Positions 8,474 to 11,982 of a DNA stretch of 13,034 nt are shown in pieces. The notes beneath the pieces were generated by a model. The model saw nothing but the letters and a program-made list of their open reading frames with translations, was not told the origin of the DNA and ran no database searches. The position numbers and the translations under genes are program-made. Source of the DNA: a virus (taxonomy: Duplodnaviria; Heunggongvirae; Uroviricota; Caudoviricetes). The stretch lies in IMG/VR virus record IMGVR_UViG_638341084_000022, one strand, 5' to 3'. Within the stretch, counting starts at the first letter, position 1. Every line of letters begins with the position of its first letter.

Positions 8474-9496
8474 TTAATACGCATTTAATTTAAATTTGTA
8501 TTTGCCTTCTATGTAATGGATAAATTCAATTATGCTTTTTTCTATCGCATCTAATATATGAATATATCCATCCCGATTTAAGGTCCTATCCAACTCAAAG
8601 TGATGAACTATCCCATGTCTATATTGTATGATTTCAGAAATTCGATTCTCAAGAAAATCAACTGATTTTCCAATTCTTTTTTTCTTATAAAGAATCGCTC
8701 TCACATCTATATCCAGCCACTCTTTATATGCTTTATTTAGGTGGGTTAAGTTTTGAAAAGTGTAATTTCTTGCAATAACACTTTCTATTGAAATATTTCC
8801 TTTCTCTATCTCAAGCAGAATATCAAAATCAACTTTTTGCTTATACGATGTTCTTTTTGCTATTGCGAAAGGATCGTACTTTATAAGTATTTGAAAAGCT
8901 CTAGAGAAAAAATATTCAAACATAGCAACCGCAAAAGGTACTAATCCATTATATATAACTCTACTGGGATCCATACATTGCATGTAATCAAAGTATTCGG
9001 ATAAGCCGCCATCTTCCGGTAGGTTTAATTTAATAGAAGGTTCAGGTAAGGCATGTTTAACAGCGGAAATCTCATGATGGACATGATTAAATATTGAAGA
9101 AATGCCACGACTGATCGGACTACTAGAATCCTTCCATAGAGGAGCGTACCTATTTTTCCCATAATCACCTATAAGTGTTCCACCAAAAAGACTCCGTGCG
9201 CCTTTTAGAACATCATTAAGCATTTTTACATCATGCCAACTAGCGCTATATAAATTACGCACATGCAATGCCCATTTATTACCAGATATGTGTAGTTCGT
9301 CATTTGAAACAGGATATATATCAGCCGAAACTCCATCTGTAGATTTGAAGTCCGTATCATCAAACCAAGAGTAATTCAACGTTCCTTGGGGCCATTCCCA
9401 CAAATGTTTACACCTTTTAAAACCTAAATTTTCAAGGTAATTTTTAAGTTCGTTTCTAGTTGCTTTTTTAGGGTACAGCGTTATATCTCTTCCCAT
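8474..9496 (-). CDS. hypothetical protein, AT-rich cargo gene inserted between D and ogr; possible HEPN-like C-terminal domain
   Basis: An uninterrupted 340-codon ORF with an AGGTGA Shine-Dalgarno about 8 nt upstream of ATG 9496. It is visibly more AT-rich than the flanking tail genes and uses AGA/ATA codons. The C-terminal region has an R-x4-H arrangement (QYRHGIVHH, residues 293-298, nt 8620-8603) followed by a predicted final helix, as in HEPN nuclease domains. I recognise no family with confidence. Confidence 0.75.
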   Translation of the reverse strand: MGRDITLYPKKATRNELKNYLENLGFKRCKHLWEWPQGTLNYSWFDDTDFKSTDGVSADIYPVSNDELHISGNKWALHVRNLYSASWHDVKMLNDVLKGARSLFGGTLIGDYGKNRYAPLWKDSSSPISRGISSIFNHVHHEISAVKHALPEPSIKLNLPEDGGLSEYFDYMQCMDPSRVIYNGLVPFAVAMFEYFFSRAFQILIKYDPFAIAKRTSYKQKVDFDILLEIEKGNISIESVIARNYTFQNLTHLNKAYKEWLDIDVRAILYKKKRIGKSVDFLENRISEIIQYRHGIVHHFELDRTLNRDGYIHILDAIEKSIIEFIHYIEGKYKFKLNAY

Positions 9497-9687: not shown

Positions 9688-9948
9688 ATGTTCCGTTGTC
9701 CGCTTTGTGCCGCATCTGCCCGTATCCGCACAAGTCGTCCGGAAAATGATTCAAACACCGTGCGGCAAAAATATTACCAGTGTAACAATCTGGAATGCGG
9801 CGTATGCTTCTCAACACTGGAAGCTTTCCATAAATTCACATCGAAACACGCCTCCGGCGTTCACTCTTCAGAAGGTATCCCGTGGCATGAGCTACCAGCT
9901 TCACACAGGGGAAACAATCAGATGAGTTTGCCTTTACCTAAGAATTAA
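9688..9948 (+). CDS. ogr: Ogr/Delta-family zinc-finger late transcription activator
   Basis: MFRCPLCAASARIRTSRPENDSNTVRQKYYQCNNLECGVCFSTLEAF... carries the C-x2-C...C-x4-C zinc-binding pattern and the RTSR motif I recall from P2 Ogr. An AAGGGAGG Shine-Dalgarno sits 5 nt upstream, with a TACAAT -10-like hexamer at 9645-9650. Location downstream of D matches P2. Confidence 0.85.
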   Translation: MFRCPLCAASARIRTSRPENDSNTVRQKYYQCNNLECGVCFSTLEAFHKFTSKHASGVHSSEGIPWHELPASHRGNNQMSLPLPKN

Positions 9949-9957
9949 CAAGCAGAA

Positions 9958-9986
9958 TTGCCGGAGTAACAAAAAAGCGATAGATT
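9958..9986 (+). promoter_or_regulatory. candidate sigma70 promoter for the hok-like mRNA
   Basis: TTGCCG (9958-9963), a 17-bp spacer, then TAGATT (9981-9986). The predicted start near 9993 coincides with the 5' element GGGTGCCTT that is complementary to the 3' end of the locus. Hexamers are weak matches. Confidence 0.3.
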
Positions 9987-10138
9987 ACGCGCGGGTGCCT
10001 TTCGGCTGATGGTCGGAGGGAATACCCGAAGGCCAGATGTGGAAAGGCCCCGGAAAACACTTTTGTTTAACCGAGGCCCTAACCGTCTACCCTAAGCAAG
10101 TGAAAGGTTAGCGCCTCTCCGGAAAAGGAGCAAGTGCT

Positions 10139-10279
10139 ATGTCGCAAAAATCGCTTACAGCCATCACGTTCTGCGTGACGGTAATCCTCATCATCTGGAT
10201 GTTGCACGGTTCGCTGTGCGAAATACGGATGAGTTTCTGGGGAGCGGAGTTTGCGGCGTTCTTACAGTGTAAGCAGTAA
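10139..10279 (+). CDS. Hok/Gef-family type I toxin (46 aa small membrane peptide)
   Basis: This small ORF is not in the six-frame track (under 60 aa). Translation is MSQKSLTAITFCVTVILIIWMLHGSLCEIRMSFWGAEFAAFLQCKQ: an N-terminal transmembrane helix, then the SLCE(I/L) motif and an AAFL-x-CK tail, as in HokA/Hok as recalled. An AAGGAG Shine-Dalgarno sits 8 nt upstream. Fold-back complementarity of the mRNA ends supports a hok-type locus (see findings). Confidence 0.7.
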   Translation: MSQKSLTAITFCVTVILIIWMLHGSLCEIRMSFWGAEFAAFLQCKQ

Positions 10280-10310: not shown

Positions 10311-10360
10311 AATCGGTTGCCAGGGTAAGGTCGATAAGGCACCCTATCTCACGGCTCTAA

Positions 10361-10396
10361 ATGCAAAAATTCCATGAAACTGTGGGATTTTTGCAT
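10361..10396 (+). terminator. 13/14-bp inverted repeat hairpin; candidate 3' terminator of the hok-like transcript or an operator
   Basis: ATGCAAAAATTCCA (10361-10374), 8-nt loop, TGGGATTTTTGCAT (10383-10396), with one mismatch. The right arm contains a T5 run. It lies just downstream of the 3' fold-back element at 10336-10344. Confidence 0.35.
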
Positions 10397-10540
10397 CACT
10401 ACTGATACAGATCTGACCTTCTTTATGTCTCACTCTATACCAGCTAATCAATTGACACTTATCAATAAAAAAAAATCTGATAAAATCAAAATGTTTTGTA
10501 ACAAATATCAACTCGTATTGATCCAAAGGAGGCGGATTAC

Positions 10541-10873
10541 ATGGCATTAATCAAATGTCCTGAATGCCAGAAAGAGGTGAGCGATTCAGCATTGTATTGC
10601 CCTGCTTGCGGTAAACAAATAAAAAAACTTAAGCGTTCATTTTTTGGAAAGCTCATTAAGTGGATTTTTATATTATTTAATATTTTTATGATCTATACGC
10701 TTTTAGTTGGACTGGGAGGCACTAGTGAAATAATAAATAATGCAACATCCGATGCCGAAAAAGCCGGTGTAGTTATTGGTACAGGCTTAGGTTTAATTAC
10801 CATTGGAAGTTTATGGGTTATTGGCGATATCATTATCGGAATTTTAGTGTTTCTTACTAAACCAAAAGGATAA
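10541..10873 (+). CDS. small zinc-ribbon membrane protein (CxxC-x10-CxxC N-terminus, two predicted TM helices)
   Basis: MALIKCPECQKEVSDSALYCPACGK..., followed by two hydrophobic stretches (IKWIFILFNIFMIYTLLVGLGG and VVIGTGLGLITIGSLWVIGDIIIGILVFL). An AGGAGG Shine-Dalgarno sits 8 nt upstream. The gene is AT-rich. Confidence 0.7.
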   Translation: MALIKCPECQKEVSDSALYCPACGKQIKKLKRSFFGKLIKWIFILFNIFMIYTLLVGLGGTSEIINNATSDAEKAGVVIGTGLGLITIGSLWVIGDIIIGILVFLTKPKG

Positions 10874-10877
10874 CAAA

Positions 10878-11771
10878 ATGAAAAATATAATTTTTTCTAT
10901 AGGTGCATCATTTATATCAATTAGTGTACTGCCTGTTCACGCAGCAACTGAACATAATAACTTCAATGCAGTACTCCAGTGCCGAGCAATAGAAAATAAT
11001 AAAGACAGACTTTCTTGTTACGATAAGTCAATACAACCGACTCGAACGAAAGTTGCTGAAAAATTCGAAAGCAGAGATCAATGCCCTGATGAGAAAGATG
11101 ATGACAGACGTTTATCTTGTTATGATCGTTTTTTTTCTCCAACATTTACTCCATCTGTAAACTCAAAATCTAAAACGGAAAAGCCAGTAACAACAGAGGC
11201 TCAGCAACCAAATCTTTCTGAGATATCTAAATGCCGAGCAGAAAATGATAAAGAAGCCAGACTAAACTGCTACGATAAACTATTCCCACAGGATAAAGCT
11301 GTTCAAGCTGAATCAAAATTAGAGAAAGCCACAGATGTAGGAAAATGGCACACATCCATTACTACATCGCCAATTGATGATTCGAAAAATGTAATTTTAT
11401 CGTTAGAAAGTGATGATTATATCAGAACTCCATTTGGAGAAGCGGTTACTCCTACTCTGTTTATAGCTTGCCGAGAAAAGAAAACCGAAGTATTTCTTAG
11501 TTGGGATGTATATTTAGGCCTTGAACAAACCAGCATGCTTTATCGTCTTGATAAACAGAAAGCAGTTGAGCGAAACTGGCTAGTATCTACAGATACAAAG
11601 GCTGTTTTTTATAAAGGTAATGACATTGATTTCATCCGAAAACTAGCCAACTCAAACAAAATGTATACAAAAATAACTCCTTATAATGAGAGCCCTGTAA
11701 GTGCAACTTTCAATTTAAACGGCCTGTCAAACGCGCTAAAACCACTTCAAGCTGCTTGTAACTGGAAATAG
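10878..11771 (+). CDS. secreted protein with three tandem Cys-containing repeats (C-x8-RL[SN]CYD[KR]) and a C-terminal domain of unknown function
   Basis: Sec-type signal peptide (MKNIIFSIGASFISISVLPVHA / ATE). Repeats lie at residues 35-50, 69-84 and 119-134 (nt 10980-11279). It starts 4 nt after the zinc-ribbon gene stop, with an AAGGA Shine-Dalgarno, so is likely co-transcribed. The gene is AT-rich. Confidence 0.75.
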   Translation: MKNIIFSIGASFISISVLPVHAATEHNNFNAVLQCRAIENNKDRLSCYDKSIQPTRTKVAEKFESRDQCPDEKDDDRRLSCYDRFFSPTFTPSVNSKSKTEKPVTTEAQQPNLSEISKCRAENDKEARLNCYDKLFPQDKAVQAESKLEKATDVGKWHTSITTSPIDDSKNVILSLESDDYIRTPFGEAVTPTLFIACREKKTEVFLSWDVYLGLEQTSMLYRLDKQKAVERNWLVSTDTKAVFYKGNDIDFIRKLANSNKMYTKITPYNESPVSATFNLNGLSNALKPLQAACNWK

Positions 11772-11799: not shown

Positions 11800-11841
11800 C
11801 AGATAACACAAAGCCCGTGAAAACGGGCTTTGTGTTATCTG
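11800..11841. repeat. perfect 18-bp inverted repeat with 6-nt loop (strong hairpin); possible bidirectional terminator or boundary element
   Basis: CAGATAACACAAAGCCCG (11800-11817), loop TGAAAA, CGGGCTTTGTGTTATCTG (11824-11841). It is preceded by a second small palindrome, TGTGGC-TTA-GCCACA (11781-11795). No canonical U-tract follows on either strand. Confidence 0.6.
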
Positions 11842-11982
11842 TAACTCGAAAATGTGGTCACTACGTGGACACGTGCTGATATAAATCCTTTTATATCAAT
11901 AAATTAAATCATCATTTTTTTCATCAACAAGGATTTTCACGTTTGTGTTACCTGTATGAGACGAGAGTTAACCGGACAAGTG

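Follow-up and report, generated by a model that had tools for sequence, protein, structure and literature searches.

A gene pair from the right end of a P2-like prophage, predicted to encode a zinc-ribbon membrane protein with a DrpB-like hairpin and an exported VasI/TagO relative

What do two small genes at the far end of a P2-like prophage encode, and what could they offer to the cell that carries them? The question is raised by a stretch of caudoviricete DNA of 13,034 nucleotides (IMG/VR record IMGVR_UViG_638341084_000022), referred to here, at its full length, as the window. Gene 1 (10541-10873, +) is predicted to encode an inner-membrane protein of 110 amino acids with a zinc ribbon and two transmembrane (TM) helices, and gene 2 (10878-11771, +) an exported protein of 297 amino acids that belongs to the VasI/TagO family. 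We regard this identity of the cassette, and its status as prophage cargo, as almost certain. Neither family is new: a preliminary description of the locus had left both proteins unrecognised, but PHROG families exist for each, gene 2 is annotated in RefSeq, and the copy in Citrobacter phage PhiSM appears in a published paper (PMC6456863). What our analysis adds to the papers and annotations consulted is that gene 2 belongs to a phage clade distinct from the TagO proteins of type VI secretion systems (T6SS), with a variable number of hairpins (one to three); that it is accompanied by a zinc-ribbon protein with a membrane hairpin that appears, from profile comparisons, to be remotely homologous to DrpB; and that natural fusions tie DrpB-like and VasI modules together.

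Two proteins with remote relatives

Gene 2 had been described as a protein with a Sec signal, three C-x8-RL-x-CYD motifs and a Cys-bearing C-terminal domain, and this architecture is borne out. The signal peptide (residues 1-22; 10878-10943, +) is hydrophobic and ends in VHA, followed by AT. It precedes three Cys-stapled helical hairpins joined by disordered linkers (residues 29-51, 66-85 and 113-135; 10962-11030, 11073-11132 and 11214-11282, +) and a beta-sandwich with the fold of IalB (residues 153-297, approximately; 11334-11768, +). The motif is found exactly three times, at residues 35-49, 69-83 and 119-133, and further cysteines lie at positions 198 and 294. Across 49 homologues, C119, R128, L129, C131, D133 and C198 are invariant and C294 is nearly so; together with ratios of nonsynonymous to synonymous substitution (dN/dS) of 0.1-0.37 for both genes, this invariance shows that the motif is not a low-complexity feature. 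Homologues of gene 2 (n=92) are mostly from Enterobacterales and come in lengths of about 297, 250 and 210 amino acids, which correspond to three, two and one hairpin.

The family, which the preliminary description could not name, is VasI. Gene 2 scores 89.6 bits with the Pfam VasI model (PF11319; cut-off, 26.5), with positions 1-184 of the 184 in the model aligned on residues 118-296. Two further stretches of the protein match the model at the other two hairpins. Since the N-terminal part of the model matches all three motifs, the motif is the family's own N-terminal element, present here in triplicate, rather than a new invention. In the AlphaFold2 (AF2) model, the mean predicted local distance difference test score (pLDDT) is 74, with values of 75-82 in the hairpins and above 90 in the sandwich (residues 158-294). 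The first Cys of each hairpin ends helix 1 and the second lies within helix 2, a placement that fits one disulfide per hairpin; C198 and C294 would probably form a fourth, all of these bonds being predictions. Together, the Pfam match and the AF2 model support the early suggestion of Cys-constrained N-terminal modules followed by a C-terminal domain, and it is in our view well supported that the product of gene 2 is exported by Sec to the periplasm, is rich in Cys and contains a domain with the IalB fold. A search of PDB sequences with the gene 2 profile gave chance-level matches only, and the matches in a viral structure library were all to uncharacterised proteins, some of them from T4-like phages (RB16, KP15).

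RefSeq labels gene 2 'T6SS-associated protein TagO', which implies that its product supplements or modulates the T6SS of the host, with gene 1 as a helper. The Pfam match speaks for this role, and so does the architecture, which is that of the TagO protein encoded in the T6SS cluster of E. coli Sakai (ECs_0222; one hairpin, sandwich and C-terminal CxW); the two proteins share 26% identity (E 5e-11). In addition, the PhiSM copy has been listed as a 'T6SS VasI family protein' and counted as a T6SS/virulence factor (PMC6456863). However, gene 2 scores only 75.9 bits with the equivalog model TIGR03360, whose cut-off is 124.2, and its phage-borne relatives score 35-57 bits, whereas ECs_0222 reaches 257.4 bits. 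Moreover, no T6SS genes were found beside relatives of gene 2 (down to about 40% identity) in 6 chromosomal contexts and 80 viral contigs, where these genes are part of prophages or stand alone. The window itself holds P2-like prophage genes and flk only, with no T6SS cluster of the tssH/clpV and tssM type, and thus lacks the context that TIGR03360 calls for. Finally, a 2026 review lists even TagO/VasI as a protein of unknown function (PMC13584744). We deem a T6SS accessory role very improbable; both the T6SS label of the public annotation and the virulence-factor label of the Citrobacter phage paper are unsupported by present evidence.

Gene 1 also matches its first description as a zinc ribbon followed by two TM helices. 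Four cysteines at positions 6, 9, 20 and 23 form a CxxC-x10-CxxC pattern within the predicted cytoplasmic ribbon (residues 1-28; 10541-10624, +), which scores 31.1 bits with Pfam Zn_Ribbon_1 (PF13240; cut-off, 25) and is predicted to bind metal. A basic juxtamembrane stretch (RSFFGK) leads into TM1 (residues 38-60, approximately), which is followed by a periplasmic loop (about 61-76), TM2 (about 77-105) and the C-terminal sequence LTKPKG. The AF2 model (pLDDT 80) consists of a small ribbon and a helical hairpin formed by residues 34-66 and 71-105. The protein falls into PHROG 6586 (E 3.7e-42), and 21 homologues retain the four cysteines without exception, RSFFGK before TM1, WVIGDIIIG in TM2 and LT(R/K)PK at the C-terminus. 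An inner-membrane protein with both termini inside and a cytoplasmic zinc ribbon is therefore how we describe gene 1, and this topology is well supported.

The hairpin of gene 1 resembles DrpB. With the NCBIfam model for DrpB/YedR (NF038392), residues 28-109 score 21.8 bits (E 1.7e-4), under the cut-off of 50, and several homologues of gene 1 have weak precomputed matches to Pfam DrpB (PF28000). When gene 1 was compared with the single E. coli DrpB sequence, hhalign gave a probability of 14%; comparison of the gene-1 family with an alignment of 25 DrpB sequences raised it to 86.8% (E 4.3e-6), over 79 columns that span residues 28-110 and cover all of DrpB. A hidden Markov model (HMM) built from the DrpB alignment gives scores of up to 29 bits to representatives of the gene-1 family. 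TM composition may inflate such scores, and the curated DrpB cut-offs are not reached. The motifs RSxxGK(L/I)xxWxF and (L/Y)T(R/K)P(K/R) are common to both proteins, and YTRPR of DrpB, which contains T89, aligns with LTKPK of gene 1, whose T106 is nearly invariant. T89A is the only DrpB point mutant that loses Rcs activation (bioRxiv 10.1101/2024.08.29.610257). On the basis of these alignments, we interpret gene 1 as the fusion of a zinc ribbon with a remote DrpB homologue. As reported, DrpB is confined to E. coli and close relatives (PMC7648144); the gene-1 family comprises 403 clusters at E <=1e-10, with Gamma- and Alphaproteobacteria and Bacteroidota among the hits.

This resemblance brings in an alternative to the guarding role discussed below, namely that the cassette modulates envelope signalling or division. 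The DrpB-like hairpin would switch on Rcs (and Psp) or tune the divisome, gene 2 would be a periplasmic cofactor, and any benefit (capsule, biofilm, phage or T6SS resistance) would be indirect. In multicopy, DrpB goes to the septum and activates Rcs and Psp, and suppression of ftsEX is another of its experimental properties (PMC7648144; bioRxiv 10.1101/2024.08.29.610257). The alignment over the whole of DrpB, the HMM scores and the weak PF28000 matches all point in this direction, and the counterpart of T89 is among the common motifs. On the other hand, the same alignments are open to the inflation just mentioned and stay below the curated cut-off, and DrpB has neither a zinc ribbon nor a VasI partner. 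The gene-1 family carries the same motifs in Bacteroidota, Alphaproteobacteria and other groups that, to our knowledge, are devoid of the Rcs phosphorelay, and hence the conserved motif cannot be specific to Rcs. We hold a signalling or division role to be unlikely.

Directly 5' of gene-1 homologues there is also a recurrent alternative neighbour, an uncharacterised protein of 170-280 amino acids with an N-terminal zinc ribbon, one TM helix and the C-terminal sequence NPEFLFKF. It was seen at loci L011, L015, L023, L009, L029 and L012-L014, from Photorhabdus, Ewingella, Competibacteraceae and others.

Cargo between ogr and the attachment site

The window comprises the right half of a P2-like prophage, with a tail fibre fragment, a DNA invertase, gpU, the tape measure, gpE, tube, sheath, gpD and ogr, and then flk, which was identified by NCBIfam (507 bits). 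Gene 1 and gene 2 are 4 nt apart (CAAA) and are preceded by Shine-Dalgarno sequences (AAGGAGG at 10526-10532 and AAGGA ahead of 10878, respectively). The GC content of the cassette is 35.7%, compared with 52.4% in flk and 55.3% in the prophage tail genes. These values and coordinates agree with the initial picture of two AT-rich plus-strand genes, 4 nt apart and unlike flk. The same picture included a horizontally acquired operon, for which the vehicle can now be named: it is the P2-like prophage of this very window. Prophage-free E. coli chromosomes align to the window only from 11918 onward, and the attP region of phage P88_4B11 resembles it up to about 11937 and no further. From these two limits we place the attR core, TTTTCATCAACAAGGATTTT, at 11918-11937 (no strand); it is the right edge of the prophage, and the cassette lies inside, 147 bp from the core.

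The same gene pair is found between hok and the integrase gene in the packaged genome of P88_4B11, as well as in Escherichia phages 500465-2 and PhiR44_2 and in Citrobacter phage Shae_phiSM. Altogether, 7 of 50,697 phage records contain the cassette, which is therefore accessory cargo. Whereas flk was matched in every one of 5,426 complete E. coli genomes, the cassette was present in 225 of them (about 4%), and the RefSeq annotation of these 225 genomes backs the upstream context of ogr and hok.

Upstream of gene 1 lies a sigma-70-type promoter-like element (10459-10486, +), with a -35 sequence TTATCA (10459-10464), a 16-nt spacer and a -10 sequence TAAAAT (10481-10486). A plain promoter consensus scan did no better than shuffle expectation, and our promoter call is based instead on conservation across phages: TTGTCA-N16-GATAAAAT is kept 5' of gene 1 in P2-like prophages whose synonymous divergence from the window is saturated. 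In prophages that lack hok, the conserved promoter directly follows the ogr terminator. When the sequences 5' of the cassette in Escherichia, Klebsiella and Raoultella prophages are aligned, the block ATGTTTTGTAACAAAT proves to be conserved. Within the conserved leader (about 10487-10512), the inverted repeat TTTGT-A-ACAAA (TTTGTAACAAA; 10495-10505, +) is a candidate operator or element of the 5' untranslated region. Small open reading frames (ORFs) that overlap the leader (10344-10550) were considered and judged unlikely, as their frame is not kept in P88_4B11.

On the 3' side of gene 2, before the att core, a perfect 19-bp stem-loop, CAGATAACACAAAGCCCGT-GAAA-ACGGGCTTTGTGTTATCTG (11800-11841, +), has a predicted folding energy of -32.9 kcal/mol. 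In P88_4B11, three of its base pairs are changed on both sides and the pairing is kept. Because it lacks a T-run, it is not a canonical intrinsic terminator. It is likely a transcript-end or attP-arm structure, and it could also be a stability element or an arm structure for integrase and integration host factor. Measured against orthologues, gene 1 has dN/dS values of 0.20-0.36 and gene 2 has values of 0.09-0.37, which fall to 0.05-0.18 in the beta-sandwich; judged by these ratios, both genes are under purifying selection, which is strongest in the sandwich. In summary, the cassette has what is expected of a moron, or lysogenic-conversion locus: it lies inside the prophage borders, is rare among phages, differs in GC content (35.7% versus 55%) and is provided with a conserved promoter and a conserved stem-loop. 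Read from these features, the genes are functional, laid out as a moron and presumably expressed in the lysogen.

The position and signals of the cassette also bear on a role in the lytic cycle, in which gene 1 would, for instance, act as a holin or antiholin of class II type or assist injection or assembly, and gene 2 would be a periplasmic factor of lysis or entry. Gene 1 has the small N-in/C-in layout with two TM helices that is typical of some holins, and the fold relatives of gene 2 in RB16 and KP15 belong to virulent phages. Nevertheless, most P2-like phages do without the cassette, which is AT-rich, has its own promoter and sits at the att end, outside the late operons; the lysis genes of P2 are located elsewhere in its genome, and homologues of gene 1 are common in chromosomal contexts that are not phage. 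Gene 1 as a holin was considered and judged unlikely, and a lytic role of the pair is the least probable of the explanations that we weighed.

The surrounding region holds further cargo. Upstream of the cassette, ogr (9688-9948, +; Pfam Ogr_Delta) is followed by an ORF for a Hok/MokW-like toxin (10139-10279, +) of 46 amino acids, with an SLCEIR motif and a match to the MokW-like PHROG 251 (E 2.5e-23). This hok has a leader at about 9960-10138, and a terminator-like site lies on the minus strand (10311-10288); an Rfam scan of the whole window at gathering thresholds returned no match, hok/sok RNA included. In P88_4B11 (L002, 4854-5686), a two-gene module is inserted 5' of the cassette and encodes a protein of 82 amino acids and a RES-domain protein of 192 amino acids (Pfam RES, 39 bits). 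This module is probably a RES-type toxin-antitoxin system. Its presence marks the region between ogr and the att site as a cargo hot spot. A second cargo gene of the prophage, a very AT-rich ORF (33.6% GC) for 340 amino acids, is inserted between gpD and ogr (8474-9496, -). It has a sub-threshold match to Pfam HEPN_RiboL-PSP (E 1.2e-4; 22.5 bits against 28.4) and no match in PADLOC, PHROG or NCBIfam, and is a possible candidate for an RNase-type defence or abortive-infection gene. At the other end of the window, a serine DNA invertase gene (859-1467, +; Pfam Resolvase, 172 bits, and HTH_7) adjoins a tail-fibre-like fragment (332-751, -), an arrangement that suggests an invertible host-range segment of the Gin/Cin type.

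Coupling of the two genes and a proposed role

The preliminary description had asked whether the linkage of the two genes is conserved, and an operon-like unit does recur across prophages of several genera. The order gpD, ogr, zinc-ribbon protein of 110 amino acids, VasI-like protein and host DNA is found in Klebsiella, Dickeya, Raoultella and Citrobacter prophages whose integration sites differ, among them yccJ/wrbA and fieF/pfkA in Klebsiella and pflB in Dickeya. Gene 1 lies directly 5' of the VasI-like gene, with a 4-nt gap or an overlap and nearly always with ogr upstream, in 67 of 80 viral contigs, many of which are near-identical, so that this count overstates the number of independent lineages, which is nearer fifteen. 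Conversely, a VasI-like gene accompanies 60 of the 80 best viral matches to gene 1.

Could the two genes simply be unrelated items of cargo that share a common hot spot, with no physical or functional coupling? Each is indeed found without the other. Most chromosomal homologues of gene 1 have other neighbours, which include small secreted proteins (Excalibur-like, OB-fold and others) and zinc-ribbon proteins with a single TM helix, or none. Gene 1 is missing beside 13 of the 80 viral VasI-like genes, VasI-like genes are seen alone beside integrases of other temperate elements or inverted after ogr, and in other hairpin fusions OB-fold or LprI-like periplasmic domains take the place of VasI, which argues against an obligatory coupling. 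Against mere coexistence in a hot spot stands the spacing, since lineages whose synonymous divergence is saturated retain the 4-nt gap or the overlap. Two independent fusion proteins also speak against it. In one, of 488 amino acids (L071, from a Rhodospirillales metagenome-assembled genome), a DrpB-like hairpin is combined with about three additional TM helices, a coiled coil and a VasI sandwich; in the other, of 310 amino acids (P0414), it is combined with a single additional TM helix and a VasI domain above the Pfam threshold (38.3 bits). The odd number of extra TM helices in both places the VasI domain in the periplasm. Finally, another P2-like prophage of E. coli, located beside tamB, carries a VasI-like gene with two hairpins that is convergent with a gene for a zinc-ribbon protein of 98 amino acids whose two TM helices form a TM2 domain, so that the partner has been swapped for one of a different TM family. 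Unrelated cargo is in our view quite unlikely, a little more so than the signalling role considered above.

Coupling is thus frequent and not obligatory. We conclude that the DrpB-like hairpin is a membrane module of general use, for which a VasI sandwich is a common though not invariable partner, and we think that the two proteins of the cassette probably act together. Two side observations concern the partners themselves. In several E. coli-type prophages (L124-L128, L117) the VasI-like gene is broken into short ORFs next to an intact gene 1, a pattern that hints that gene 1 can be kept alone. In Photobacterium phosphoreum (L092, 7001-8513) a stand-alone VasI-like gene adjoins a gene with a domain of LprI, a lysozyme-inhibitor family, and one protein (P0415) joins a DrpB-like hairpin to a domain with weak similarity to LprI; these two cases form a faint link to LprI-type periplasmic domains.

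The explanation that we prefer overall, although we hold it tentatively, is that the cassette serves a P2-like (Peduoviridae) prophage as a module of lysogenic conversion, with a role at the level of the envelope. According to this proposal, the pair would be expressed from its own conserved promoter, within the variable stretch of cargo that separates ogr/hok from the attachment site. Gene 1 would insert in the inner membrane with both ends in the cytoplasm, exposing its C4 zinc ribbon there and holding the DrpB-like two-helix hairpin in the membrane. Gene 2 would be exported by Sec, oxidised to four disulfides (one per hairpin plus C198-C294) and reside in the periplasm. The two products may form one unit at the interface of inner membrane and periplasm, with the hairpin of gene 1 as membrane module and the VasI/IalB-fold sandwich as periplasmic working end. 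The hairpin-plus-linker units, of which there are one to three, would then serve as a spacer of variable reach; in the L071 fusion, the coiled coil occupies the same position. By these means the envelope of the lysogen might be changed or guarded.

In the form of this envelope role that we favour, incoming phage DNA, or other contractile injection machines, would be excluded at the level of periplasm and inner membrane, a proposal by analogy that we consider possible but doubtful. It draws on the genomic niche, since the neighbouring cargo is of toxin or defence type (hok here, the RES-domain toxin in P88_4B11), on the many temperate elements that carry such genes, and on a layout common to exclusion proteins. 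Small inner-membrane and periplasmic proteins of prophages are classic agents of superinfection exclusion, as exemplified by T4 Imm (two TM helices) with Sp, P22 SieA and HK97 gp15. Several observations weigh against an envelope-guarding module. Besides the redundancy of the viral contigs and the many occurrences of each gene without the other, the dN/dS comparison gave no sign of the diversifying selection that an exclusion factor engaged in an arms race might show. A scan of PADLOC-DB v2 with gene 1, gene 2, the HEPN-like ORF and hok returned no match (for gene 1 and gene 2, at E up to 0.1), and the IalB fold comes without a known activity. No functional study of the gene pair was found in the literature on TagO/VasI, prophage Rcs or superinfection factors.

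The pair matters beyond this window, as it is carried by about 4% of complete E. coli genomes and by many Klebsiella, Raoultella, Dickeya and Citrobacter prophages. It adds a candidate envelope-level lysogenic-conversion function to P2-like phages and offers a cheap experimental handle on TagO and DrpB, two proteins without a known mechanism. A broader and rather unlikely extension is that it represents a widespread and hitherto unrecognised two-part envelope system of temperate phages, which would guard the lysogen against superinfecting myophages, tailocins or T6SS, either by direct action in the periplasm or through a stress response elicited by the DrpB hairpin. If this were true, the TagO of T6SS and the DrpB of the chromosome would represent the same module in domesticated or parallel form, and a testable function would be at hand for both.

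Comparison with known systems

The closest counterpart of gene 2 is TagO/VasI (PF11319; TIGR03360), as represented by ECs_0222 and by VCA0118 of V. cholerae. They have in common the signal peptide, the C-x8-RLxCYD hairpin, the Cys pair of the sandwich and the C-terminal C-x-W. They differ in that TagO has one hairpin and gene 2 three, in the score of gene 2 below the equivalog cut-off, and in genomic setting, a T6SS cluster for TagO and P2-like prophages beside a zinc-ribbon two-TM gene for gene 2. The sandwich has the fold of IalB, the invasion-associated locus B protein of Bartonella (PDB 3dtd; PF06776), with an identity of only 16-19%, and IalB lacks the Cys hairpins. As the molecular function of IalB is unknown, the fold match says nothing on the activity of gene 2. 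With chain A of the Vibrio polar flagellar LPHT ring (PDB 8z5n_A), presumably MotY to judge by description and length, the likeness does not go beyond structural analogy (8% identity), and gene 2 is without an OmpA-like peptidoglycan-binding domain.

For gene 1, the counterpart is DrpB (YedR), a non-essential divisome protein of E. coli and multicopy activator of Rcs. Both have a two-TM hairpin with N-in/C-in topology, a short periplasmic loop and juxtamembrane motifs. Unlike DrpB, gene 1 carries an N-terminal C4 zinc ribbon and is borne by a phage, and its family is spread far beyond the enterics. The zinc-ribbon and TM2 protein of the prophage next to tamB (L084, 8830-9126) resembles gene 1 in its CxxC...CxxC pattern followed by two TM helices and in its place after ogr/hok and beside a VasI-like gene; it differs in its TM part, which is Pfam TM2 (PF05154), and in the convergent rather than co-directional arrangement of the pair. 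At the level of the whole system, T4 Imm/Sp, P22 SieA and HK97 gp15 offer the nearest parallel, that of a phage-encoded small two-TM inner-membrane protein and a periplasm-facing protein that act on the envelope of the carrier. This resemblance is one of layout and genomic role, and we claim no relation in sequence or fold.

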